Shown here piece after piece: positions 8,842 to 23,906 of a stretch of 24,291 bases of DNA. Origin of the DNA: a virus (lineage: Duplodnaviria; Caudoviricetes); the IMG/VR virus record IMGVR_UViG_3300037419_000644, positions 1 to 24,291 of that record; one strand, written 5' to 3'. The translations under genes were made by a program, and so were the position numbers. Under the pieces are notes generated by a model that saw nothing but the letters and a program-made list of their open reading frames with translations, made no database searches and was not told where the DNA came from. Numbering within the stretch: position 1 is the first letter of the stretch; every line of letters begins with the position of its first letter.

Positions 8842-8896
8842 ATGGGTCGCGAGCGCCAACTCCACCCATTTCTATAACAATAAGAGGTTACCCATG
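8842..8896 (+). promoter_or_regulatory. structured 5' leader of HNH endonuclease gene
   Basis: ATGGGT/ACCCAT stem, CGC/C internal loop, GAG/CTC stem with CGCCAA loop, then a TAAC/GTTA hairpin with the purine-rich SD in its loop. Confidence 0.6.
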
Positions 8897-9508
8897 TTAC
8901 AGCGTTCAGATATATTTATTGAGTCTAAATATGTTAAATGGTATTTTGAGTTAATGGAAAAAGCAAGATACCAACCACCTATAAAAGGTCAGACAGAAAA
9001 ACATCATATTATTCCAGAAGGATGTGGTGGTGAAGATAAAATGGAAAATAGGGTAAATTTGACATATCGACAACATTACATTTCTCATATGCTTTTGGCA
9101 AAAGCCGATTATGTCGAATCATCTTCTAAGAGAAAAATGGTTCAAGGATTTCTTGCATTGGGCCGATTTCGTAAGTTAGATTGGTGGATTAATAGAGATA
9201 GGAATGGGTGTAAGACAAATTTACATGCTCAATTGAAAAAAAATCTCAGTTGCCACATTCGAGGTGAAAAAAGTGTGGTTTTTGGTCAAAAATTCTCTGA
9301 AGAGAGAAAACGACTCCAAAAAAATGGATTAATTGGGAAATCATCGTCTGGTGAGAACCATTATCTTTATAAAAAGAAAATGTCCGAAGAACAAAAGAGG
9401 AAGATAAGCCAGACACTCAAAAAGTATAGTTTCACAGAAGAACATAAAAGGAATATCAGTCTATCAAAAATTGGTCGTCCTCGAAAAGTGAAACTCTTAA
9501 AGTCCTAA
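8894..9508 (+). mobile_element. free-standing HNH homing endonuclease (Mob-like) with NUMOD3-like repeats
   Basis: KY.KWY..L...A; EKHHIIP.GCGG.D..EN.V.LT.RQH...H.LL; C-terminal SEEQKRKIS / TEEHKRNIS; AT-richer than flanks. Confidence 0.9.
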
Positions 9509-11454: not shown

Positions 11455-12039
11455 ATGATTATTTCAGAGAAGGTGGAAGTAACAATATCAAACCAAGGGA
11501 AGTATTATTCTTCCCTTGGTTACAAAGATACTAAACAAGGCACTAAAATAATAGTACCAATTGAACATTTATTAAAAAATTCTAATATTAAAGTTGAATG
11601 TCAATGTGATCAATGTGATTCAATATTCTGGAGACAATATCAATTAGTAAGAAAAGAAGGTAAACTCAATTTAGGACTATTATGTTTTGATTGTGCCAGA
11701 AAAGAAATAGGCGTTCAATCGGATAAGACTAATGCAAAAATTGCAAATAGTAAAAGAACTGGTGTTAAACATCCACGTTGGAATCCTAATAAAAGTGAAT
11801 TTGTTAAATTTGCCAATCAAGTAAGATGGTTAAGTGAAAAGAAATATATTGAATATAAAGATATTATCAATCCACACGACTACCCAAGAACATTATGTGG
11901 TGTTGAAGGTGGTTATCAGTTAGACCATATTATTTCCATCAAAAGAGGTTTTTTGACAGGTCTTAATCCAGAATTTTTAGCAGAAGTAAATAATCTGCGA
12001 ATGGTTCCATGGAAAGTAAATCGTGATAAGTGGTACTAA
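11455..12039 (+). mobile_element. free-standing HNH endonuclease (C-terminal HNH, N-terminal CxxC zinc motifs)
   Basis: CDQC...CFDC; G.KHPRWNP; YQLDHIISIK.GF...NNLRMVPW.VN..K; AT-rich insertion between gp18 and gp19. Confidence 0.8.
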
Positions 12040-12077: not shown

Positions 12078-12659
12078 ATGCCTTTTAATATTTCAAACTT
12101 CAGATCAGAACTACAATATGACGGCGCAAGAGCGAACCTCTTCGAAGTCACAATGCAGTTCCCTATTCTCCTTGGTAATTCCGATGCTGCAAGAAAGCTG
12201 ACTTTCATGTGTAAGTCAGCCTCTCTGCCTGGTGTGTCCGTTGGAACTGTTCCAATGTACTACTTTGGTCGTGAGCTAAAGTTTGCTGGCAACAAGAATT
12301 TCCAGGATTGGTCAATCACAATCATCAATGACGAAGACTTTCTGGTCCGTAACGCATTCGAAGAATGGTCAGACGGCATCAATCGTCACGTCGAAAACCT
12401 AAGAACACTTGGCAATAATCCAAATTCTTATCAGGTTGATATGCAAGTTGTCCAGTACGGTAAGTCTGGTAACGGCATCAAGGGTTACAACCTAGTTGGT
12501 TGCTGGCCTACTGACATTTCAACTATCGATTTGGATTGGGGTACAAACGACACAATCGAAGATTTCACTGTTACTCTAGCATACCAGTGGTGGGAAGCGT
12601 ATGGTCCGTCTGGGGTGCAAATCACAGATGGTGAATCCTCACCTGTCGTGTTGCCTTAA
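12078..12659 (+). CDS. gp19: tail tube protein gp19 (start moved to ATG 12078)
   Basis: GARANLFEV; F.CKSASLP; YFGRELK.AG...F..W.ITIINDEDF..RNAFE.W; WPT.IS.IDL.W...DTIE.F.VT..YQWW. Confidence 0.97.
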   Translation: MPFNISNFRSELQYDGARANLFEVTMQFPILLGNSDAARKLTFMCKSASLPGVSVGTVPMYYFGRELKFAGNKNFQDWSITIINDEDFLVRNAFEEWSDGINRHVENLRTLGNNPNSYQVDMQVVQYGKSGNGIKGYNLVGCWPTDISTIDLDWGTNDTIEDFTVTLAYQWWEAYGPSGVQITDGESSPVVLP

Positions 12660-12675
12660 TCTTTTATTTTTTATC

Positions 12676-13338
12676 ATGTTGTGTACAATCTACAAAGCAA
12701 CTAACAAAATTAATGGCAAATCATACATTGGTTTTGATAGTAATTGGCCAAGGCGGCAAATAGAACACAAGTCTAATGCCGCCTTGGCTCGCGATGCTAC
12801 ACACTTTCATAAAGCCATCCGTAAACATGGTTGGGATAATTTTGTTTGGGAAATTGTCTGTCAATTTCCAGACAAAAATTATACATTAAAGGTATTGGAA
12901 CCATATTTCATCAAGTATTATGATACATACGAAAATGGATATAATCTAACACATGGTGGTGATGGTAATCCTGGTTATAAATGGTCAACTGAAATGACCG
13001 AGTATATGAGAAAAATTATGACAGGTAAGAAACAATCAAAAGAAACACTGAAAAAGAAAAGCCTGGCTGCCAAAGGAAGAAAATTGTCTCAAGATCACAT
13101 TTTAAATACTTCTATTGGTCTCATAAAGAGATATGAAACTGAAAACCAAGAAAAAATTTTGGTAAATACAAAATATGGGTCAGTTATGTTTGGCTCATTT
13201 AGGTCTGCCGAAAGATCATTAAAAAATGGTTCAAAATGTGACCTTCATTGGTGCTTCCGTTTCTATAGAAAAAATGATCGTCTTCCACCAAAATTATTAA
13301 ATGAAGGTTTCATCATTAGCGTAGAAAGAGTTGCCTAA
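12676..13338 (+). mobile_element. free-standing GIY-YIG (Seg-like) homing endonuclease with NUMOD3-like region
   Basis: TIYKATNKINGKSYIG; R..EH; F..AIRKHGW.NF.WEI; LE..FI..YDT..NGYNLT.GG.G. Start ATG 12676 lies after the gp19 stop. Confidence 0.9.
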
Positions 13339-15047
13339 TGGCTGGCATAAAGTTATTTGGTTACGAGCTAATAAAGACTAAGCAGGAAGAGGCTAACTCC
13401 TCTCCTTCCCTTAAGTCTTTTGTTGGTCCGGAAAACGATGATGGTGCTATTACAATCCAATCGGGTGCCGGGGGATTCTCCGGCACCTTTCTTGACTTGG
13501 ATGGTGTCATCAAGAATGAGCAAGAGCTTATTGTACGTTATCGTGAAATGGCTCAACAGCCCGAAGTTGAGTCGGCAATTGACGATATCTGCAATGAAGC
13601 CATTGTCCATGACGACGAAGGTAAGACCGTTTCGTTGGTCATGGATCAATTGGATGACTATGATGAAACAGTAAAGAAGGCCATTCGCGACGAGTTTGAC
13701 AATGTTCTGAGATTGTTGGATTTCTCCAACCAAGGTTATGATATCTTTCGCCAATGGTATGTAGATGGTCGTATCTTCTACCATGTCATCGTGGATGAAG
13801 CCAATCGGGATGAAGGTATCAAAGAAGTAAGATTTATTGATCCTCGCAGGATCAAAAAGATTCGTGAAATCCAGAAGGTGAAAGACCCACGTACTGGAAT
13901 GGACATGGTTGGTAAAGTCCAGGAATACTATCTGTTCAATGAGTATGGAACTCCTGGTAAGAACAATTCTGGGGCTAATGGCACTGTAGGCAAGATTGCC
14001 AAAGACTCTGTGGTCTCTATCACTTCTGGTCTTGTTGACCCGAAACGTGGACTCGTTATTGGTTTCTTGAACAAGGCTATCAAGCCTGCCAACAACCTTA
14101 GAATGATTGAAGATGCTTCTGTCATTTATCGTTTGGCAAGAGCACCTGGTCGTCGTGCGTGGTATTTCGACGTAGGTGGCATGAGTTCCAAGAAAGCTGA
14201 AGAATATGTAAATTCGATGATGGTGAAATATCGTAATCGTCTTCAATATGATTCGTCTACAGGTGAAATCAAAGACGATAGACGCCATATTTCAATGCTT
14301 GAAGACTTCTGGTTGGCACGTAAGGATGGTAAACAAACCACCGAGATCGTTACACTTCCAGAAGGTGCTAATCTTGGTAACATGGAAGACGTGGAATATT
14401 TCCTCCGTAAGCTATATTCTGCATTGGGTGTTCCACTTTCTCGTTTGCAGCCAGGTCAGCCCTTCTCTATGGGCTACAACAATGAAATCTCTCGCGATGA
14501 ATTGAAGTTCTCGAAATTCATTGATCGTCTTAGAAATCGTTTCTCTCACCTATTCGATGAACTACTTCGCCAGCAATTGATCTTGAAAAAGGTCTGTAAT
14601 GCCGAAGAATGGGAAGATATCCGCGAACGTCTGCATTATGACTTTTTGCGTGACAATAACTTTACCGAGTTGAAAGAAAGCCAATTGTTGCAGAATCGTC
14701 TCCAGATTCTAACTTCAATCTCTCCTTATGTTGGTGTGTATTTCTCTCAGAAATGGATCAAGACGAACGTTCTTCGCTTCGATGACGAGGACATTGAACA
14801 AATGGATGAAGAAATCGAGGAAGAGGGTTCACAACCACCACCACCAGGAGCAGAGGGACAAATTGATCCTCAGACTGGAATGCCATTTGAAATGGGTTCA
14901 GACGGTACTCCAACACAAAGCGGTGCAATGCCTAGTGAACCAGGTGAACCAGCTTTTGGACAGAACAATTCATCAAATGACTACAAGCCAAAGCTTCGTA
15001 GGAATAAGAAATATGGCGAAGAACCAAAAAGTCCGTTTGACAAGTAA
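13338..15047 (+). CDS. gp20: portal vertex protein gp20
   Basis: LI.RYREMA..PEV.SAI.DI.NEAIV; FRQWYVDGRI; IDPR.IKK.RE; AIKPAN.LRM.EDA.VIYRLARAP.RR..Y.DVG; EDFWL.R; ISRDELKFSKFI.RLR; DN.F.ELKE. Confidence 0.98.
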   Translation: MAGIKLFGYELIKTKQEEANSSPSLKSFVGPENDDGAITIQSGAGGFSGTFLDLDGVIKNEQELIVRYREMAQQPEVESAIDDICNEAIVHDDEGKTVSLVMDQLDDYDETVKKAIRDEFDNVLRLLDFSNQGYDIFRQWYVDGRIFYHVIVDEANRDEGIKEVRFIDPRRIKKIREIQKVKDPRTGMDMVGKVQEYYLFNEYGTPGKNNSGANGTVGKIAKDSVVSITSGLVDPKRGLVIGFLNKAIKPANNLRMIEDASVIYRLARAPGRRAWYFDVGGMSSKKAEEYVNSMMVKYRNRLQYDSSTGEIKDDRRHISMLEDFWLARKDGKQTTEIVTLPEGANLGNMEDVEYFLRKLYSALGVPLSRLQPGQPFSMGYNNEISRDELKFSKFIDRLRNRFSHLFDELLRQQLILKKVCNAEEWEDIRERLHYDFLRDNNFTELKESQLLQNRLQILTSISPYVGVYFSQKWIKTNVLRFDDEDIEQMDEEIEEEGSQPPPPGAEGQIDPQTGMPFEMGSDGTPTQSGAMPSEPGEPAFGQNNSSNDYKPKLRRNKKYGEEPKSPFDK

Positions 15048-15285
15048 GATCATCGAACACCGTGATAGAGCTACCGACCATTTCATTGCGGAAGGCTTAG
15101 GTGATTGGCTGAAACCGGGTTACAAAGGCACTGCCGATATCAAGCGTAGACGCCAACAACACTTGGCTAATAAGTATGTGTATAAGACCGATAAAGAAGG
15201 TACTTTCAAGTTTCATCATCATAACAGAGCGGCACAACGATATGGTCGTCTAGCTGCTGGTAAGAAACCATTTCAAGAAGGATAA
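15013..15285 (+). CDS. small basic protein (90 aa), candidate internal head protein
   Basis: ATG 15013 with AGGA upstream, overlapping the gp20 3' end; contains FIAE (end of the T4 capsid-targeting sequence) followed by a K/R/H-rich segment. Confidence 0.6.
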   Translation: MAKNQKVRLTSKIIEHRDRATDHFIAEGLGDWLKPGYKGTADIKRRRQQHLANKYVYKTDKEGTFKFHHHNRAAQRYGRLAAGKKPFQEG

Positions 15286-15289
15286 GAAA

Positions 15290-16036
15290 ATGAGCAGTAA
15301 AGATATCATCGACCATCTATACAATGGTGATTTGGATCAGATGCGTGAAGCATTCCATCAAACAATGCTTCCTCATGTCGCCAACATGCTTGAAACAAAG
15401 AAGCTTGAAGTAGCTTCAAAGATGATTGGAGATGGGGAACCTGTCAGTGAAGAGGTTCTAGCAGAAATTTCAAAGAAGACACTTGGCTCATATGTAAAGA
15501 AATCTGCCGAAAATATGGCTGCTGGTGAAAGTGACAAAGAAACATATCGCAAGTATCCGGTTGCCAGAAAAGAAGCTGAAAAACAGGTTGAAAAGCGCCG
15601 CACTGGAATTGAACGCGCCGTTAAAAAACTAACCAAAGAAGAAATGGAAACAATCATTGATGCTTTGGATGAAGAAACATTGACAGAACTATCAAAAGGT
15701 ACACTTAAGTCATATGTTCATAAAGCTTCAATGGATATGGTTAAAAATAATCATCTAGCAACATCACCTTTTAAAGGTAAAGGGTACGCAAAAAATAAGG
15801 TTGCAGAAAGAAAGTTTGGTAATAGAGTCGATGGTGTCAAAAAAGCCTTTAATAAAGTTACCAAAGAAGAAGTAGAAGAATTCCTAGGTACTTTAACTCA
15901 GGAAGAAATTGAAAATCTTCAGGAACTATCTTCCAAGAAACTTCTTCAGTACACAGCCAAGGCTGGTTACGATACCAAGAAAGATCGTGAAAAGGGTATT
16001 GACAAGGCTACAAAGAAGCTATCAAAAGACGAATAA
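15290..16036 (+). CDS. gp67: gp67-like prohead core protein fused to three copies of a basic repeat module
   Basis: N-terminal 47 aa (IIDHLYNGDL.QMREAF...M...VANMLETKKLEVASKM) matches the gp67 pattern and position; followed by 3 E[IL]S..TL.SY..K repeats. Confidence 0.65.
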   Translation: MSSKDIIDHLYNGDLDQMREAFHQTMLPHVANMLETKKLEVASKMIGDGEPVSEEVLAEISKKTLGSYVKKSAENMAAGESDKETYRKYPVARKEAEKQVEKRRTGIERAVKKLTKEEMETIIDALDEETLTELSKGTLKSYVHKASMDMVKNNHLATSPFKGKGYAKNKVAERKFGNRVDGVKKAFNKVTKEEVEEFLGTLTQEEIENLQELSSKKLLQYTAKAGYDTKKDREKGIDKATKKLSKDE

Positions 16037-16066
16037 GGTTCCTCGCGTAAAGGAGTAATTTTCCAG

Positions 16067-16354
16067 ATGAAAACATTCGAACAAATTCAAGAAGAAATTT
16101 TATCCGAATTGTCTGGCAAAACTCTTGTTGGTTATATCCAGAAAGCTACCGCGGAAGGTGACAAACAAAATAAGATCGCTCAAGGGCATATGAAAACCTT
16201 ACATAAGCTTCGCATGATTGACAACAAACTGGAAGACCCCAAGAACAAAGAATACTATACACAAACCCATGCTCATGCTCGTAAAGCCGTGAGCAAGCAT
16301 TTTAGAAGAACTGCTGGCTTGAAGCGAGCATATAGAAGTTTGGAGAAGAAATGA
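16067..16354 (+). CDS. candidate internal head protein; capsid-targeting-like N-terminus plus one repeat module
   Basis: MKTFEQIQEEILSE then LSGKTLVGYIQKA...RTAGLKRAY; SD AAGGAG. Confidence 0.7.
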   Translation: MKTFEQIQEEILSELSGKTLVGYIQKATAEGDKQNKIAQGHMKTLHKLRMIDNKLEDPKNKEYYTQTHAHARKAVSKHFRRTAGLKRAYRSLEKK

Positions 16355-16575
16355 AAATGTTAAATCAAATCCAGGAAGAAATCTTGAATGAGATTAGCTT
16401 CGACAAAATGACCGAATATACGAAAAAAGCCTATGCAAGTCGTGAAAAGGCCGGACAGAGAGCCCGCGCATTCGACAATGCAACAGCGAAAGAGGGTACC
16501 AAAACTTATAATAAAAGAGAAAAAGGTTTGAAACTTCTTCATAAGAGATCAAAGGGCTTTTACGGCGAAAAATAA
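16351..16575 (+). CDS. candidate internal head protein; paralog of the preceding ORF
   Basis: MKMLNQIQEEILNE then ISFDKMTEYTKKA...REKGLKLL; ATGA overlap; SD GGAG. Confidence 0.7.
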   Translation: MKMLNQIQEEILNEISFDKMTEYTKKAYASREKAGQRARAFDNATAKEGTKTYNKREKGLKLLHKRSKGFYGEK

Positions 16576-16580
16576 TCATC

Positions 16581-16766
16581 ATGAAGACATTCTGGCAACT
16601 TCTGGAAGAAATGAAGGTAACTAAAGAATCTGTAGACTACTCCAAGGGTATGCCAGAAAGTCATTGTGGTATCTGCGATCATTATAAATCACCAAATGCC
16701 TGCGAAAGAGTAAAAGGTAAAATCAACACAAATATGTGGTGCAAACTGTTCAAGAAAGAAGATTAG
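16581..16766 (+). CDS. HiPIP-like (high-potential iron-sulfur) 4-Cys protein with capsid-targeting-like N-terminus
   Basis: MKTFWQLLEE leader, then K.SV.Y(20)...HC29-x2-C32-x8-C41..V.G.I....WC54..F. Confidence 0.65.
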   Translation: MKTFWQLLEEMKVTKESVDYSKGMPESHCGICDHYKSPNACERVKGKINTNMWCKLFKKED

Positions 16767-16769
16767 ATC

Positions 16770-17264
16770 GTGAAAACCTTAAGCCAACTACTGTCAGAAA
16801 CGAGACATGAAAAGGTGCAAGAACAGACACCACCTGTTTCTATGGTAGAGGCAACAGACGTAATTACACCAGATCAACTATACCACGATTTCGATGTTGA
16901 TGGAGATGGTGTTGTATCTGTAGACGACTATGCATCAAAGATTCTTTGGCATGAGACTCATCCCGGAAAGTTGGAATGGATTATGGGTAATATGGACGGT
17001 GTCCATTTGGAACATGCTGCAAGCGAAGATTCATCATGTGCCGTTTCTCTTCATGAAGACTATGATAGAAGGGTCGAAACAGAGAATTTGGATGAAAATA
17101 CCAAAGGTTCTTTGATGCCACCGTCAATGATCGTAATGAAACGTGTTGCTATCCGACAATATCCCAATGGTCAGAAGGTGGCTCTTTACTACGCCAAGAC
17201 AATTAATAAATATTTGACAGTTCCCTACAACGACATTGGTATCGCAGACTTAACGAAGGAATGA
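16770..17264 (+). CDS. candidate head protein with capsid-targeting-like N-terminus, EF-hand-like loop and conserved C-terminal domain (GTG start)
   Basis: MKTLSQLLSE; DVDGDGVVSVDD; C-terminal PP.MIVMKR.AIR.YP.GQKVALYY...INKY.TVPY resembles ORFs found between gp20 and gp21 in environmental T4-like phages. Confidence 0.65.
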   Translation: MKTLSQLLSETRHEKVQEQTPPVSMVEATDVITPDQLYHDFDVDGDGVVSVDDYASKILWHETHPGKLEWIMGNMDGVHLEHAASEDSSCAVSLHEDYDRRVETENLDENTKGSLMPPSMIVMKRVAIRQYPNGQKVALYYAKTINKYLTVPYNDIGIADLTKE

Positions 17265-17269
17265 TCTAA

Positions 17270-17863
17270 ATGACTCTACAAATTGGTAGCCTAGTACGCC
17301 CAACGGCAGGGCCACACAAAAACCAGGTCCATGAAGTTGTCCATATTTTCGAAGATGGACATGCAAACATTCGCCCTGTAGAAGGCGAATGCTTGTATGA
17401 AGATGGATTGGTTACATGTGATCCAAAACTCCTTCAAGAAGAATTCATTGTTGAAGAATACCAGGAGCCCTATGGACACTGGTTTACGTCCATGTCTGAA
17501 AAGCAAAAGACGGCCTATCGCAAGAATCATCCAGATGCCCAAGGCACTTATGGTCATGCTCCTGGATCAGTCAAGCATTATAGGGCACTGTCACAGGCAC
17601 ATGAGAAATATGCCGACTTTCATAAAGATCGTTTGGAACATCATGAAGACAAGCGCCATGCAGAATCACAGAAAACCAAACCAGACTATGAAGCAATGGA
17701 TCATCATTCTAGTGCAAGACATGGACATGCTACAGAATTCCATAATCATACGATGGCAGCAGCACATTATGGCTCTCTAGCTCGCGGCGGGTCTCCAAGT
17801 TATGACAAATGGATTCCAAAGCGTCATAATGAAGTCTCACCCGCAGAACCAGCAAGGTATTAA
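17270..17863 (+). CDS. hypothetical protein: KOW/SH3-like N-terminus, His-rich helical C-terminus
   Basis: IGSLVRPTAGPHKNQVHEV; LLQE/FIVE linker; 21 His in 197 aa. Confidence 0.6.
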   Translation: MTLQIGSLVRPTAGPHKNQVHEVVHIFEDGHANIRPVEGECLYEDGLVTCDPKLLQEEFIVEEYQEPYGHWFTSMSEKQKTAYRKNHPDAQGTYGHAPGSVKHYRALSQAHEKYADFHKDRLEHHEDKRHAESQKTKPDYEAMDHHSSARHGHATEFHNHTMAAAHYGSLARGGSPSYDKWIPKRHNEVSPAEPARY

Positions 17864-17866
17864 TAA

Positions 17867-18310
17867 ATGCCAATTTCCAATACACAAATCCTTCTAGATA
17901 CCCAGAAACGCACCGTTGTTAAGGTAACGGGTTCTGGAACTGATGTTGCAAACACGACAATCATTAATGCCAATACATTGAATGGGGCCATTTCTGGTCT
18001 TGGATATCACGAGGTTGATGTTCGCAAGATCATCTATTCAATCACAGATGGTGGTGGTTATGTCAAACTTTATTGGCAGGGTGCGTCCGCCAACGTCGAT
18101 ATGGTAAACATCACAGGTCAAGGTGTTCTAGAATTCCAGCCAGAAGCAATGGTATTGAATAACAATGCTACCAATCCATCTGGAAATATTGGATTTTCAA
18201 CAACTGGTATGTCTGCAAACTCCGCATATACTGTAATCCTTGATTTGAGAAAGAATACCGCACACTTCGATCCAGGTTCAGCACTTGACCCAGCCGCTTT
18301 CAACAGATGA
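17867..18310 (+). CDS. conserved beta-rich virion protein upstream of gp68/gp21
   Basis: TQIL.DT.KR.V.K.TG; I.YS; L.W.G; N.SG.I...T.G.....AYT.IL.LRK...HFD.G...DPAAFN is a pattern I recognise from this locus in T4-like phages. Confidence 0.65.
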   Translation: MPISNTQILLDTQKRTVVKVTGSGTDVANTTIINANTLNGAISGLGYHEVDVRKIIYSITDGGGYVKLYWQGASANVDMVNITGQGVLEFQPEAMVLNNNATNPSGNIGFSTTGMSANSAYTVILDLRKNTAHFDPGSALDPAAFNR

Positions 18311-18584
18311 TTTTGAATTTCTAGACGAGGCGGCATTTAGATATGTCACACGAGTCAGAAATGGAAAAGTCATTCGACGCGCCAAAGTCAAAACTGTTAA
18401 GAGAAAAGGATATAAACTCCGTGGTAACAGATTGGTGCGAGAAAGTGCGGCTGAAATTCGAAACAGACGTCGTGCGGCGATTAAAGCTACAAGGAAGCGT
18501 AGGTCTAAACGCTCCCAATCAAACAGAAAGCGTGCAAGATCACTCCTAAAGAGACAAAGATTGCATCTAAAGAGGAAAAGATAA
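18285..18584 (+). CDS. gp68: prohead core protein gp68-like (start uncertain)
   Basis: FLDE followed by a very Arg/Lys-rich region ending R.R..AIKA.RKR.......RKR.RSL.KR..L.L, like the gp68 C-terminus; directly before gp21. Confidence 0.75.
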   Translation: MTQPLSTDDFEFLDEAAFRYVTRVRNGKVIRRAKVKTVKRKGYKLRGNRLVRESAAEIRNRRRAAIKATRKRRSKRSQSNRKRARSLLKRQRLHLKRKR

Positions 18585-19244
18585 ATGATCCTATTAACAG
18601 AAGAGATCAACGACATTGAATATTTGACTGAAGGTACCGGCGCGAACAAGGCTTATTATATTACTGGCCCCTTCATTCAGCCTGGTGTCAAGAATGGCAA
18701 TGATCGTATCTACCCAGAACACGTTATGGATCGTGAAGTAGAGTCTTACACCAAGAAATATATCAATGAAAATCGTGCTTTCGGAGAACTGGGTCATCCC
18801 GATGGTCCAAAGATCAATCTTGATCGTGTCTCTCACATCATCAAGAGCCTAAAGAAAGAAGGACGCGATTACTATGGTAAAGCAAAGATTATGGACACCC
18901 CTTATGGCAAGATTGTCAAGAACTTTCTTGATGAAGGTGCTAAAATTGGTGTTTCTACTCGTGGTGTTGGCACTGTTACCAAGAAGAATGGAATTGCCTA
19001 TATTAATGAAGACTACCGACTATCCACTGCCGCCGATATCGTAGGAGACCCATCAGCCCCGGATGCTTTTGTCCAAGGTCTAAGAGAATCCAAGGAATGG
19101 ATGCTGATTGATGGGGTCTATGAAGAAGTGGATGCTGAAAAGGCGAAGAAAATGTTGCTGGAAGCACACAGCAGCCAGCTAAATGAAGTCAAGATCACTC
19201 TTTTGGAAGGCTTTTTCAACAAGCTTGCCAAAGGAAAGAAGTAA
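18585..19244 (+). CDS. gp21: prohead protease gp21
   Basis: M.L.TE; YI.GPF.Q..VKN.N.R.YP; RAFGELGHP.GP.INLDRVSH.I; GKAKI.DTP.G; GVSTRG.G; AADIV.DPSAPDAFV.G..E.KEW. Confidence 0.97.
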   Translation: MILLTEEINDIEYLTEGTGANKAYYITGPFIQPGVKNGNDRIYPEHVMDREVESYTKKYINENRAFGELGHPDGPKINLDRVSHIIKSLKKEGRDYYGKAKIMDTPYGKIVKNFLDEGAKIGVSTRGVGTVTKKNGIAYINEDYRLSTAADIVGDPSAPDAFVQGLRESKEWMLIDGVYEEVDAEKAKKMLLEAHSSQLNEVKITLLEGFFNKLAKGKK

Positions 19245-19256
19245 ACCAATCCTAAC

Positions 19257-19264
19257 CCTAAATA
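19257..19264 (+). promoter_or_regulatory. late promoter variant CCTAAATA upstream of gp22
   Basis: Intergenic, followed by SD AAGGAG and ATG 19299. Confidence 0.65.
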
Positions 19265-19298
19265 CCAACGTAATTTGAAATCAAGGAGTTTCGTCCTA

Positions 19299-20906
19299 AT
19301 GTCTAAAAAGAATATCACTGATCTAGCACGTTCAATCATGGAAGGCAAGACAAAGACCTTGTCTGAAGGCGCTGACCCATTGGAAAACGTGAACGACCTA
19401 GGTCCTGCTATTGTTCACCCTCTGCAGTCACGTGGCAAGGACTATGGTTCTGGCGTGTCTGGTGGTAAGGACGGAACAATCCCTGGTTCAAGCAAGCCAG
19501 GTGAAAAGTACAACCCAACCAACAAAGACCCTGATCCAAAGGGTGATGTTAAGCCTAACGTAAATTCCAAGGATCATACGATTCCTGGTTCTGAAAAGCC
19601 AGGTGAAAAGTTTGACCCAACCAACAAAGGTAAGGGTGACGACAAGTCTGGTAACCCTGCTGATGGTCCAACAGGTGGTAAGGGTAAGGGCGAACCTTAT
19701 AACCCAACACATCGTACACAGTCCGTCAAGGAAGAAATTCTATCCGAACTTTCTAAGAATACACTTAGCTCATATGTCAAGAAAGCTGCTTCTGATAGAT
19801 CAATGTTGTCACCAATAACTCATAGCGCTGACACCAAAGGGGCTCAAAAGAAACGCGATAATCGTCGTAAAGGAGTCTCTCTCGCTTTTAATAAGCTAAC
19901 CAAAGAAGATGTAGAAGCAATCATGAACTTCATTGGTGGTGAAATCAATGAAGAAAATCTAGAAGCATTGGATGCAAACAAAAGAAATGAATTGTTGTCA
20001 TTCTTTGAATCATTGGAAGACGGCACATCTCTTCTTGAAGTATCCAAAGATGACGACGATGATGACGATGACGATAAGGATGATTCAAAGGATAAAGACG
20101 ATGACAAGGACGATGATGGCGACAAGGCAGACAAATTCAAGAAGCTAAAGGAAGCTCGTGAAGCTGCTGATCGTGCAATCGCTGAACACGTCGATGCAAT
20201 GCTTTCTGGAGAAAACCTAACAGAAGAATTCCAGAAGAAAGCAAAGACAATCTTCGAAGCTGCCGTAGCAGAACGTGAAGCAGTTCTCCGAGAAGAAATC
20301 GAAGCTGAATTCGCTGGCAAGCTTGAAGAAGCCATTGAAGAAATCAAGACCGATCTTGAAGCAAAAGTTGACGATTACATGTCATACTGTGCCAAGGAAT
20401 GGTTGAAGGAAAATGAACTAGCAGTTGAATCATCAACCAAGGTTCAATTGAGCGATGACTTCCTAAATGGTCTACGTAGCCTATTCATTGAACATCACAT
20501 CAATATTCCAACTGAAAAGGTTGATGTTGTTGAAGAATTGTCCTCTGAAGTAGAAGAATTGGAAGGCAAGCTAAACGAAGAGATTGCCAAGAATGTCGAA
20601 GTCCAGAAGGAAGTTTCTGAACTACGTCGTGAAAGAATGGTAATCGAAGCATGTGCTGGTCTAACAACCACTCAAGCTTCCAAAGTCATGAAATTGGTTG
20701 AAGGTATTTCTGCTGAAACTGACGATGAATTCAAGTCTAAGCTTTCAACAATCGTTGAATCTTATACTGGAACAAAGCCACCAGTCGGAAAGACCGTTGT
20801 AGAAGATAAGGATCCAGCTTCTAACGAAAAGAAGGAAGAAGTTGATAATCCAATGTCAAAGTACGTGTCCGCTGCAAAGCGCCATTCACCTTGGCAGAAG
20901 CTCTAA
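19299..20906 (+). CDS. gp22: prohead scaffolding/core protein gp22 with long N-terminal extension (start moved to ATG 19299)
   Basis: V.A.LSGE.LTEEF..KA.TIFEAAV; VD.Y..Y...EW..ENE.AVE; F..GL..LF.EH.I..P.EK.DVVEEL; PM..YV.A; located between gp21 and gp23. Confidence 0.93.
   Translation: MSKKNITDLARSIMEGKTKTLSEGADPLENVNDLGPAIVHPLQSRGKDYGSGVSGGKDGTIPGSSKPGEKYNPTNKDPDPKGDVKPNVNSKDHTIPGSEKPGEKFDPTNKGKGDDKSGNPADGPTGGKGKGEPYNPTHRTQSVKEEILSELSKNTLSSYVKKAASDRSMLSPITHSADTKGAQKKRDNRRKGVSLAFNKLTKEDVEAIMNFIGGEINEENLEALDANKRNELLSFFESLEDGTSLLEVSKDDDDDDDDDKDDSKDKDDDKDDDGDKADKFKKLKEAREAADRAIAEHVDAMLSGENLTEEFQKKAKTIFEAAVAEREAVLREEIEAEFAGKLEEAIEEIKTDLEAKVDDYMSYCAKEWLKENELAVESSTKVQLSDDFLNGLRSLFIEHHINIPTEKVDVVEELSSEVEELEGKLNEEIAKNVEVQKEVSELRRERMVIEACAGLTTTQASKVMKLVEGISAETDDEFKSKLSTIVESYTGTKPPVGKTVVEDKDPASNEKKEEVDNPMSKYVSAAKRHSPWQKL
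19467..19629 (+). repeat. two imperfect direct repeats (102-nt period) in the gp22 N-terminal extension
   Basis: KDGTIPGSSKPGEKYNPTNK and KDHTIPGSEKPGEKFDPTNK, plus a partial third GEPYNPT. Confidence 0.85.
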
Positions 20907-20971: not shown

Positions 20972-21029
20972 GTGGATCACGGGATTGGCGTCCCTACCCA
21001 CACTATCGTCTGGAGGGACAACAGCTATG
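20972..21029 (+). promoter_or_regulatory. structured 5' leader of GIY-YIG endonuclease gene
   Basis: GTGGAT/ACCCAC stem, CAC/T internal loop, GGGA/TCCC stem with TTGGCG loop, then a GTC/GAC hairpin around SD GGAGG. Confidence 0.6.
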
Positions 21030-21749
21030 CAGATATTTAGTATATATAAAGCAACGAATAAAATAAATGGTAAATCATATATTGAATACACAAAAGATTT
21101 TGATTATAGGAAAAAACGACATATAGAAGATAGCCGCTATATACAAAATAAATTTTATATTGCAGTAAAAGAATTTGGTTGGGATAGTTTCGAATGGGAA
21201 ATCATCTGTCAATCCTTAGATGGTAAATATCTCTTAAACGAAATGGAACCATATTTTATACAATATTATGATAGCCATCTAAATGGATATAATTCCACAA
21301 AGGGTGGCGAAGGTATCAAGGTTTTGGTTCACTCCGAGGTAACTAAGAAAAAAATTAGTGCATCAAAAACTGGAATACCTCGTGATAGTGATACCAAGAG
21401 AAAACTAAGTATATCTATGAAAGGTAATTCGAAGGGTTGGACTGCTGAAAGACGGATGAAACAATCCGAAATAACCAGAAAACAGAATTTAGGTAGGAAA
21501 CTATCCGAAGAAACCAAAAATAAAATGAGTATTTCTTTAAAGGGGAAACCGCGCAAGTGGACCAATGAATTTAGAGAAAAAAAGAGTTTAGAGATTACTA
21601 TGCGGAATCTGGGTTCCAAACATTCTCCTGAAAGAATAGCTAAAGCTGTTGAAGGAAGACGTAGGGCCTATGAACAAAAGAAATTATTATCAACCAACGG
21701 AATTGTCAAATACAACAAAAACAATGTTGACATTCCTCAACTAACTTAA
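21027..21749 (+). mobile_element. free-standing GIY-YIG (Seg-like) endonuclease with NUMOD3 repeats; YIG motif reads YIE
   Basis: SIYKATNKINGKSYIEYT; R..RH; LNEME..FI; NGYNSTKGGEG; HSEVTKKKIS, LSEETKNKMS, HSPERIAK. SD GGAGG 10 nt before ATG 21027. Confidence 0.88.
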
Positions 21750-21760
21750 GGAGACCTCCA

Positions 21761-23110
21761 ATTTATCTCTCAGAAGAAAATGAAAAGAAATGGGGCGAAT
21801 TGCTTGACTTGGATGGTCTTCCATCCATCAAGGACCCATACCGTCGTGCGGTCACTGCTCTTGTCCTAGAAAACCAGGAAAAGGCATGCCGTGCAGACGC
21901 TCAGATTCTTAACGAATCTGCACCAACCAACTCAACTGGTGCTGGTGTTTCCAACTTCGACCCAATCCTAATCTCATTGGTTCGTCGTGCTCTACCTAAC
22001 TTGATCGCTTACGATATCTGCGGCGTCCAGCCAATGACAGGTCCAACAGGCTTGATCTTCGCAATGCGTTCACGTTACAACGACAACACAACAAGCCGTA
22101 TTGCATCTGTTGAAGCTCTATTCAACGAAGTCAATACCAAGTATTCCAACAACAACCAGATTAACGCTAACACCAATATTCAAAATGGTCTTTCTAGCGA
22201 TCCTATCTCAAATGGTGCTGTTGGTAACTCAAACGTATACTGGTCAAATACTGGTCAGGGTATGTCAACTGCAACTGGTGAAGCTCTTGGTGACTCTGTT
22301 TCCAACGCATTCGCTGAAATGCAGTTCACTATCGAAAAGATCAACGTCACCGCTGTTACACGTGCGTTGAAGGCTGAATACTCACTAGAACTTGCTCAGG
22401 ACTTGAAGGCAATTCATGGTCTTGACGCTGAAGCAGAATTGTCCAACATTCTTTCAACTGAATTGTTGGCTGATATCAACCGTGAAGTTGTCCGTTCCAT
22501 CTATTCTTCTGCAACACTTGGTGCTGCATACGGAACAGCAACTGCCGGTATCTTCGACCTTGACGTTGACTCAAATGGTCGTTGGTCAGTAGAACGCTTC
22601 AAGGGTATGATTTTCCAGCTAGAACGTGAAGCTAACGCTATTGCCAAGGCAACCCGTCGTGGTAAGGGTAACATCATCATCGCTTCCGCTGACGCAGTGT
22701 CCGCTATGGCAATGGCTGGTGTTCTATCTTACACACCTGCTCTAAATCCAAACCTACAGGTCGATGACACTGGCAACACATTTGCTGGTACTCTATTCGG
22801 CTTCAAGGTTTACATCGATCCATACTTCGGTGGTTCTGTAAACGGCTATGAATTGATCACTGTCGGCTATAAGGGTTCATCCCCTTACGACGCTGGTTTG
22901 TTCTACTGCCCATACGTTCCTCTACAGATGGTTCGTGCGGTCGATCCAGGCACATTCCAGCCAAAGATCGGGTTCAAGACACGTTATGGTCTTGTCGCCA
23001 ACCCATTCGCAACTAACCAGGCTGATGGTGTGGTAATGGGTCGCTCACAGGGCGGCACAGCTTACCAGAACAAATATTATAGGCTAATAGGAGTGAAGAA
23101 CCTCATGTGA
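21761..23110 (+). CDS. gp23: major capsid protein gp23 (probable ATT start at 21761)
   Basis: KW..LLD...LP.I.DPYRRAVTA.VLENQE; FDPILISLVRR..PNLIAYDICGVQPMTGPTGLIFAMR; RALKAEYS.ELAQDLKAIHGLDAE.EL; YDAGLFYCPYVPL; FQPKIGFKTRYG; ends VKNLM. Confidence 0.98.
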   Translation: MYLSEENEKKWGELLDLDGLPSIKDPYRRAVTALVLENQEKACRADAQILNESAPTNSTGAGVSNFDPILISLVRRALPNLIAYDICGVQPMTGPTGLIFAMRSRYNDNTTSRIASVEALFNEVNTKYSNNNQINANTNIQNGLSSDPISNGAVGNSNVYWSNTGQGMSTATGEALGDSVSNAFAEMQFTIEKINVTAVTRALKAEYSLELAQDLKAIHGLDAEAELSNILSTELLADINREVVRSIYSSATLGAAYGTATAGIFDLDVDSNGRWSVERFKGMIFQLEREANAIAKATRRGKGNIIIASADAVSAMAMAGVLSYTPALNPNLQVDDTGNTFAGTLFGFKVYIDPYFGGSVNGYELITVGYKGSSPYDAGLFYCPYVPLQMVRAVDPGTFQPKIGFKTRYGLVANPFATNQADGVVMGRSQGGTAYQNKYYRLIGVKNLM

Positions 23111-23228: not shown

Positions 23229-23906
23229 ATGACTGTATATCATAATCATCACATTATACCAAGACATATGAATGGAACCGATGATCCATCAAATATTGAA
23301 CGTGTTACCATTGAAGAACATGCAGAGCGCCATAAAGCTCTTTATGAACAATATGGATACGAACAAGATCGTATTGCCTGGCTTTCTCTTTCTGGTCAAA
23401 TCTCTCAGGCTGAAGCGATCAAACTTTCACAACAAGCCCCTAAAAGCGAAAGATGGAAAGCCACTATGTCAGAAAGAATGGCTGGTGAGAATAATCCTAG
23501 ATATGGTAAAACATACGTTATGAATGAAGAAACAAAAGAAAAAATTTCTCAAACAATGAAACAGGAATACCAAAATAATTCTGAGAGACGGAAAAATCTT
23601 GATTGGACTGGTCGTAGCCATTCACCTGAAACCATCGAAAAGATTTCTCGTAAGAGAAAAGGTAAAGGTCTTTGGAAAGGAACTGATCGTCAATCTGGTA
23701 TGATTGGTAAATCTCAATCCGAACACCAGAAATCTACAGTCAAGGAACTATTTTCCAAGAAGTGGAAAGTGACCACACCAACAGGTGAGACAATCGAAGT
23801 CGTCAATCTCAGACAATATTGTGCTGATCTAGGATTCAATCCAGCAACAGCATTCAGCAATATGTCACGTGGTGATTACAAAGGTTATAAGGCAATACGC
23901 CAATGA
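23229..23906 (+). mobile_element. free-standing HNH homing endonuclease (Mob-like) with NUMOD3-like repeats
   Basis: YH.HHIIPRHM.GTDDPSNI...TIEEHAE.H..LYE.YG...D.IAW..L.G; GENNP.YGK; HSPETIEKIS; C-terminal TP.GE...V.NL.QYC. Confidence 0.9.

Follow-up and report, generated by a model that had tools for sequence, protein, structure and literature searches.

Small basic protein modules with constant ends and a variable middle occur six times among the head genes of a T4-like phage fragment. The fragment is IMG/VR virus record IMGVR_UViG_3300037419_000644, positions 1 to 24,291 (Duplodnaviria; Caudoviricetes), and this whole 24,291-nt stretch is referred to as the window. It is a 24-kb fragment running from gp13 to gp23, the virus record is ~14% complete, and the capsid protein shares 59-64% identity with those of pelagiphages, Methylophilales phages and cyanomyoviruses. 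The contribution of the present analysis is the constant-foot, typed-arm module family to which the six copies belong. The modules are read as small basic hairpins, likely cut from head-targeted precursors by the prohead protease gp21, probably retained in the capsid and injected with the DNA, the foot likely gripping DNA and the arm likely having a type-specific target. This reading as a whole is given an even chance of being correct. That gp21 cuts at the N-terminal site of the module is, taken on its own, very probable.

The six copies and their putative cleavage sites

The interval between the portal and protease genes holds ~3.5 kb of small open reading frames (ORFs), compared with two short genes in T4. 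A preliminary description of the window had placed six copies of a module across four head genes, and all six were found at those positions and in frame. The starts it gave are in the correct places but mark the Glu of the protease-type site; the predicted mature pieces, m1 to m6, begin one codon downstream and are listed here with their precursors, the protease and the scaffold. Leaders resembling the T4 capsid targeting sequence are termed CTS-like.

15290..16036, + strand: gp67-like protein, 248 aa; N-terminal gp67-type helices, then three modules with acidic linkers
15467..15640, + strand: m1, 58 aa; follows L-A-E at 15458-15466
15689..15868, + strand: m2, 60 aa; follows L-T-E; one internal V-A-E
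15926..16033, + strand: m3, 36 aa, minimal arm; C-terminal end of the protein; counterpart in the close relative L102
16067..16354, + strand: stand-alone ORF; T4-CTS-like leader containing a pair of L/I-x-E sites, followed by m4
16109-16351, + strand: m4, 81 aa, net charge +13; in ORF 16067
16351..16575, + strand: stand-alone ORF; leader like that of ORF 16067, then m5
16393-16572, + strand: m5, 60 aa, net charge +10; most divergent copy
18585..19244, + strand: prohead protease gp21; Peptidase_S77 E 8e-31; 36% identity to T4 gp21 over 151 aa
19299..20906, + strand: scaffold gp22 with long N-terminal extension; PHROG 237 E 2e-76; Pfam T4_CASP E 1e-65
19749..19907, + strand: m6, 53 aa; within scaffold gp22

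ORF 15290 is the first head-core gene, directly 3′ of the portal gene, and has an N-terminal helical domain, as expected of gp67. It matches PHROG 1064 'prohead' (aa 4-55, E 4e-4) and phrog_5709 (E 1e-7). The short acidic C-terminal tail of T4 style is absent, with three basic modules in its place. AlphaFold gives a pLDDT of ~90 for aa 1-40 and a pTM of 0.25 overall, so the protein has no single confident global fold. The N-termini of ORF 15290 and gp22 are other than a CTS-like leader. ORFs 16067 and 16351 start with MK-x-[FL], and their L-x-E comes at residue 14 (residue 10 in the T4 internal proteins IPII and IPIII, 19 in IPI); their likeness to the IPII/IPIII leaders was judged by eye. A DNA repeat family, D5, is common to the leaders of these two ORFs and to that of ORF 16581-16766. 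Acidic spacers, previously described as separating the modules, occur only between the three copies in ORF 15290; in ORFs 16067 and 16351 a leader takes their place.

The residues E, L, E, S, Y, K, R, G and K are invariant in the six-copy alignment (A1). The similarity of 11 of the 15 copy pairs is reached by at most 1 of 1000 composition shuffles, and that of the other four (three with m5, plus m3-m4) by 12, 23, 29 and 235 of 1000; m5 is the weakest copy, as three of these four pairs involve it. A profile built without m3, m4 and m5 (A3) recovers m4 (E 3e-5), m5 (5e-3) and the C-end of m3 (2e-3), and detects no seventh copy in the six frames of the window. Similarity at the DNA level, also noted earlier, amounts to 82% over 65 nt between m1 and m6 (N-end) and 82% over 39 nt between m2 and m6 (C-end).

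In T4, gp21 is reported to cut after L/I-x-E, and an Asp in the cut position to prevent processing (PMC9026906). The protease-type site claimed before every copy has comparative backing. With an anchor pattern that leaves out the Glu, a P1 Glu precedes the module in 807/807 anchors from 259 proteins, most of which hold several copies, and in 167/167 from 76 loci. P3 is Leu, Ile or Val in 804/807 and 166/167 anchors, respectively, P2 is Asp in 82%, P1 is never Asp, and no module copy begins at Met. Across 91 distinct modules there are 4 internal L/I/V-x-E sites, each located at the C-terminal edge, compared with 24.2±4.5 in shuffles. Unlike the modules, gp22 is full of internal sites; mature T4 IPI, IPII and IPIII have none. 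The gp23 of the window, used as an internal control, has 3 L/I/V-x-E sites in the N-terminal propeptide and none in the ~395 aa after it, and other gp23s retain one or two sites within the mature part.

A Glu also follows the C-terminal helix, in 140/158 internal copies and 0/9 chain-terminal copies at the loci, and in 524/640 and 7/28, respectively, in the protein set, where some entries may be truncated. This trailing Glu is retained when the module is internal but disappears at chain ends, so it belongs to the linker. It is present in 165/227 cases without an L/I-x-E within 15 residues. Of the two flanking sites described previously, the N-terminal one holds, but the C-terminal L-T-K-E differs from the textbook T4 L/I-x-E.

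A typed-arm family and its carriers

AlphaFold of m1, with 69 alignment rows, gives two helices (3-26 and 31-57; pLDDT 86, pTM 0.57), and the helical hairpin proposed earlier is borne out as a prediction. From the helix limits, the two conserved termini would lie together at one end of the hairpin as its foot, and the variable middle, or arm, would form the tip. The division into constant ends and variable middles extends across the family, with 389 arm types among 671 modules, 306 of them seen once. Arm lengths among the 389 types have a weak 3.4-3.7 periodicity (R 0.13-0.16). Net charge is positive in 91/91 distinct modules, with a mean of +8.7, and the composition of the arms (K 13%, R 6%, D 9%, E 5%) is not especially basic.

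The six-module profile matches 3505 protein clusters at E<=0.001 and 1036 at E 1e-10 among 1.84 billion representatives (clusters counted at 50% identity), and a single protein has up to 10 matching stretches. This supports a real family and not merely a compositional similarity. ORF 15290 as query matched 143 proteins, and in IMG/VR ~1100 stored stretches were estimated to match, of which 77 loci were kept. Cultured carriers are Caulobacter phage Cr30 (4 copies, gp064), which infects Caulobacter crescentus CB15, and the cyanophages S-SKS1, P-TIM68 and BUCT-ZZ01, the last of which grows on Synechococcus elongatus PCC 7942 and has one module, in protein UTS52006. The module is absent from T4, phiM12 and S-CREM2; the T4 genome contains no module match, and profile A3 against the T4 internal proteins reaches E 0.4 at best.

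The earlier statement that no described family covers the module agrees with the searches of PHROG, Pfam, NCBIfam, PDB, Foldseek and Atlas, in which nothing characterised was found. The one recurrent match, phrog_5709, is a whole-protein cluster of unannotated function which matches 31/69 modules, and Cr30 gp064 over its full length; it neither defines the repeat nor gives a function. No Pfam family matched more than 2 of 69 modules, NCBIfam gave nothing consistent, no PDB sequence matched at E 10, Foldseek returned nothing at E<=0.001 in PDB or BFVD, and the best Atlas score was 0.80, to an unnamed entry. The isolated module had no profile or fold match to helix-turn-helix, integrase core-binding helix or histone-like proteins. 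No published description of the module was found in the literature searched, which included few subscription papers and not the primary Cr30/phiM12 papers, nor in the accessible text of PMC9503650.

The 77 viral loci fall into 34 in a head slot (portal to gp21), 41 in a cytidyltransferase/DUF7207 slot and 2 unplaced. Of the 38 module ORFs in the head group, 37 are located in the gp20-gp21 interval and one is a gp22. Among loci picked by gp21 and not by the module, 4/6 with upstream sequence carry the module, two of them near-identical. The 4/4 matches in cellular genome assemblies are T4-like head clusters in metagenome-assembled bacterial genomes (L090-L093); as these are probably mis-binned phage contigs, no host was assigned from them. 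The cytidyltransferase has been reported from cyanophage virions (PMC3037559; PMC10665884, Table 3). Its gene ranges from ~190 to 1337 aa, with linker-punctuated extensions, in L024:3292, L033:3006 and other loci of this slot.

A point absent from the first reading is that the module is one cargo type among several in a wider polyprotein system. It is found behind a gp67-type helix, behind a CTS-like leader, within gp22 or as part of long chains. Chain length in many carriers is 500-1300 residues, with modules and unrelated basic segments in alternation and short acidic linkers ending in L/I/V-x-E at the joints. A strict linker pattern, derived from the module ORFs themselves, occurs 205 times in their 44,358 residues compared with 37 times in 179,227 residues of other ORFs; all 20 classes of reference-matched neighbour proteins are free of it. 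In four head-type polyproteins (L060:10059, L020:11388, L073:10938 and L057:11205) the linkers bracket a complete HicA-family domain; three of the four are close relatives which also carry the module. Pfam scans of 20 and 69 proteins gave, above the cut-off, HicA (4 proteins), DUF3008 (2), DUF5824 (2), T4_CASP (1), DUF7207 (1) and CTP_transf_like (1), together with one HWE_HK score lacking a passing stretch, and no peptidase domain. The nearest approach to experimental support is S-CREM2 gp160, which was detected in virions with 7 peptides at 13% coverage (PMC10665884). It has two non-module cargo segments in common with the module-bearing P-TIM68 gp159 (80% and 66% identical), and the support concerns cargo segments, not the module itself. 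Near the module-bearing gene of Cr30, gp060 (L001:11149-11469) consists of a CTS-like leader and an RNA 2'-phosphotransferase-like domain (PHROG 5470, E 1e-6).

Mobility of the module between core genes, as first suggested, is supported by the close relative L102, whose gp23 and gp21 are 89% and 74% identical to those of the window. Its gp22 lacks the module, similarity stopping at a V-K-E site just upstream of m6. The gp67-like gene carries a different module set except for the m3 counterpart, and a CTS-like ORF has two other modules. Within genomes, the synonymous identity of module ends is modestly above expectation.

Possible release and roles of the modules

In the proposed mechanism, the precursors would join the prohead core via gp67 helices, a CTS-like leader or gp22, and gp21, the putative processing enzyme, would cut after L/I/V-x-E; these steps are the strongest. 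A second cut after L-[TA]-K-E may remove the acidic linker, and by it a near-neutral precursor could yield strongly basic pieces only within the head, both with moderate strength. Less firmly, the released pieces might be retained and ejected by analogy with T4 internal proteins. Most tentative are the last two steps, in which the conserved foot might bind nucleic acid, most plausibly DNA as a universal partner, and each arm type might target a partner of its own, for instance a host defence protein. Duplication and exchange at the constant ends would spread new arms. Precedent comes from the T4 internal proteins, which are basic, injected and bind DNA at low salt (PMC9026906), and each of which is reported to block a different GmrSD (PMC12373910).

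The likeness to IPI, IPII and IPIII lies in a small basic mature piece behind a short leader ending in L/I-x-E (PMC9026906), without internal cut sites (the V-A-E of m2 excepted) and in a set that varies per phage (PMC9026906; PMC12373910). T4 internal proteins, however, share only the leader and give one product per gene, whereas the module family has a shared structural foot, hundreds of arm types, several modules per chain and fusions to gp67 and gp22. There is no sequence homology to IPI, IPII or IPIII, although homology is not required among internal proteins themselves. In the proposed reading the module family would work like the T4 internal proteins; it is non-homologous to them, and differs by its shared scaffold and polyprotein form. 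With T4 gp67, gp68 and gp22 it has in common the gene slot, the gp67-type N-terminal helices, the gp22 C-terminal domain and the gp21 sites. In T4, gp67 has an acidic tail at its end and each of the three proteins is cut to small peptides; here, in contrast, the core proteins carry basic, site-free cassettes. The polyvalent proteins of phages and plasmids (Iyer et al. 2017, PMC5512222), which are built of enzyme domains and include embedded peptidases, are similar in that many unrelated domains are joined in one virion-delivered chain, with release thought to be proteolytic (PMC5512222). The cargo here, by contrast, consists of basic pieces of 35-90 aa, most of which have no Pfam family, and proteolysis would fall to gp21, a separate protein; in the Pfam scans, the module carriers lack the multiple catalytic domains and embedded peptidase (such as MPTase) typical of that group.

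It is rather unlikely that the modules, cut free and kept, are only basic counter-ions which condense or neutralise packaged DNA, their middles varying since only charge and helicity matter. The positive charge of every distinct module is in keeping with this, as are the presence of up to 10 stretches in one protein, the retention in relatives of a minimal copy with almost no arm, the low-salt DNA binding of T4 internal proteins (PMC9026906), and the same ends in Caulobacter and cyanobacterial phages, which suggests a universal partner. The arms, however, are not particularly basic, and the same arm type occurs twice within one protein in only 8/689 pairs. Over 20 same-type pairs from different loci, dN/dS (the ratio of nonsynonymous to synonymous change) is 0.13 for arms and 0.18 for ends, values biased downward because same-type pairs were defined by arm similarity >45%, lowering dN. 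Several of these pairs nevertheless have pS near 0.6 with pN near 0.02, so that their synonymous sites are near-saturated while the amino acids have hardly changed. Since constraint within a type is no weaker in the arms than in the ends, a type-specific function is favoured over charge filler. Of the two functions offered in the preliminary description, the arm evidence leans towards diversified effectors, and plain DNA condensation is less favoured.

A role as scaffold or core filler, setting head size or balancing acidic gp22 before being cut and expelled like the T4 gp67, gp68 and gp22 fragments, is improbable. The fate of those fragments (PMC9958956), the small module size and the fusion to gp67-type helices and gp22 speak for it. 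Yet the modules avoid the internal cut sites of which gp22 is full, the stand-alone forms are leader and module with nothing else, the module is lacking in T4, phiM12, S-CREM2 and L102 gp22, and hundreds of conserved arm types would be hard to account for. Still less probable are uncut repeat proteins resembling beads on a string, with E-rich linkers that are structural. AlphaFold does show the linkers as helices running on from the modules, at low confidence, but an invariant Glu beside a freely Asp-rich position, its trailing counterpart lost at chain ends, the same module standing alone behind a CTS-like leader and the same linker bracketing unrelated domains all argue for cutting.

Several further points weigh against cleavage, retention and injection of the modules. 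The conservation of the P1 Glu is inflated, because the queries that collected the homologues included the Glu, and the site counts are not independent, the sequences being related. An internal V-A-E site is carried by m2, and the departure of L-T-K-E from the T4 motif leaves the trailing Glu only a presumptive second cut site. Five of the six copies (36-60 aa) are smaller than mature IPI (76 aa). T4 gp22, gp67 and gp68 are degraded to peptides which presumably exit the head (PMC9958956), and propeptides are generally expected to exit (PMC10052503). It has been cautioned that virion proteins may co-purify (PMC10665884), and S-CREM2 is without any module. The sequence and fold searches give no hint of DNA binding or of any target.

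A bolder and doubtful extension is that a universal DNA-gripping hairpin foot serves as a display scaffold for hundreds of interchangeable arms, cut by gp21, carried in with the genome and acting at once against different host defences. If true, this would amount to a natural binder library built on a single scaffold, and to a very large and untapped reservoir of injected anti-defence proteins. To our knowledge, the only non-DNA cargo known to be packed and injected by T4-like phages consists of a few coliphage proteins, each disarming one restriction enzyme; the 3505 clusters point to a much larger cargo repertoire in environmental T4-like phages. As module boundaries are readable from sequence, the exact mature peptides can be obtained for synthesis and screening, and because Cr30 and BUCT-ZZ01 grow on laboratory hosts, cleavage, retention and function are directly testable. 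The module chains also suggest how a single gene could be used to supply a capsid with several small proteins.

Neighbouring genes of the window

Other features around the module genes are as follows.

15013..15285, + strand: probable small gene overlapping the portal end; leader to I-A-E, then basic tail; no module
16581..16766, + strand: CTS-like leader and four-Cys domain like that of high-potential iron-sulfur proteins; PioC 6xyv E 3e-5; leader repeat D5
16770..17863, + strand: two further cassette ORFs; leader/linker-type sites, charged segments, no module; both conserved in L102
21761..23110, + strand: major capsid protein gp23; Gp23 E 1e-137

ORF 15013-15285 shares 49% identity over 76 aa with its positional counterpart in L102, where the site reads L-A-E. 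ORF 16581-16766, which has an NCBIfam Iro match (E 2e-7) under the cut-off of that family, is probably another cargo. It could be an iron-sulfur protein loaded in the phage head, and no counterpart was seen in L102. The region 16770-17264 comprises a leader, a weak EF-hand-like segment, a linker-type site and a C-terminal domain which recurs in the same slot in L029, L082, L091, L094 and L102.

The Gly/Pro/Lys-rich N-terminal extension of gp22 contains a second two-copy repeat (19467-19629; 61 nt, 79%), and the extension of L102 is similar. The start region of gp23 (21748-21763) has no ATG, a Shine-Dalgarno-like AAGGAG being followed by ATT where L102 has ATG; the ATT could reflect rare start-codon use, mutation or an error in the sequence. 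By eye, five ORFs situated between core genes resemble homing endonucleases (8894-9508, 11455-12039, 12601-13338, 20985-21749 and 23229-23906).

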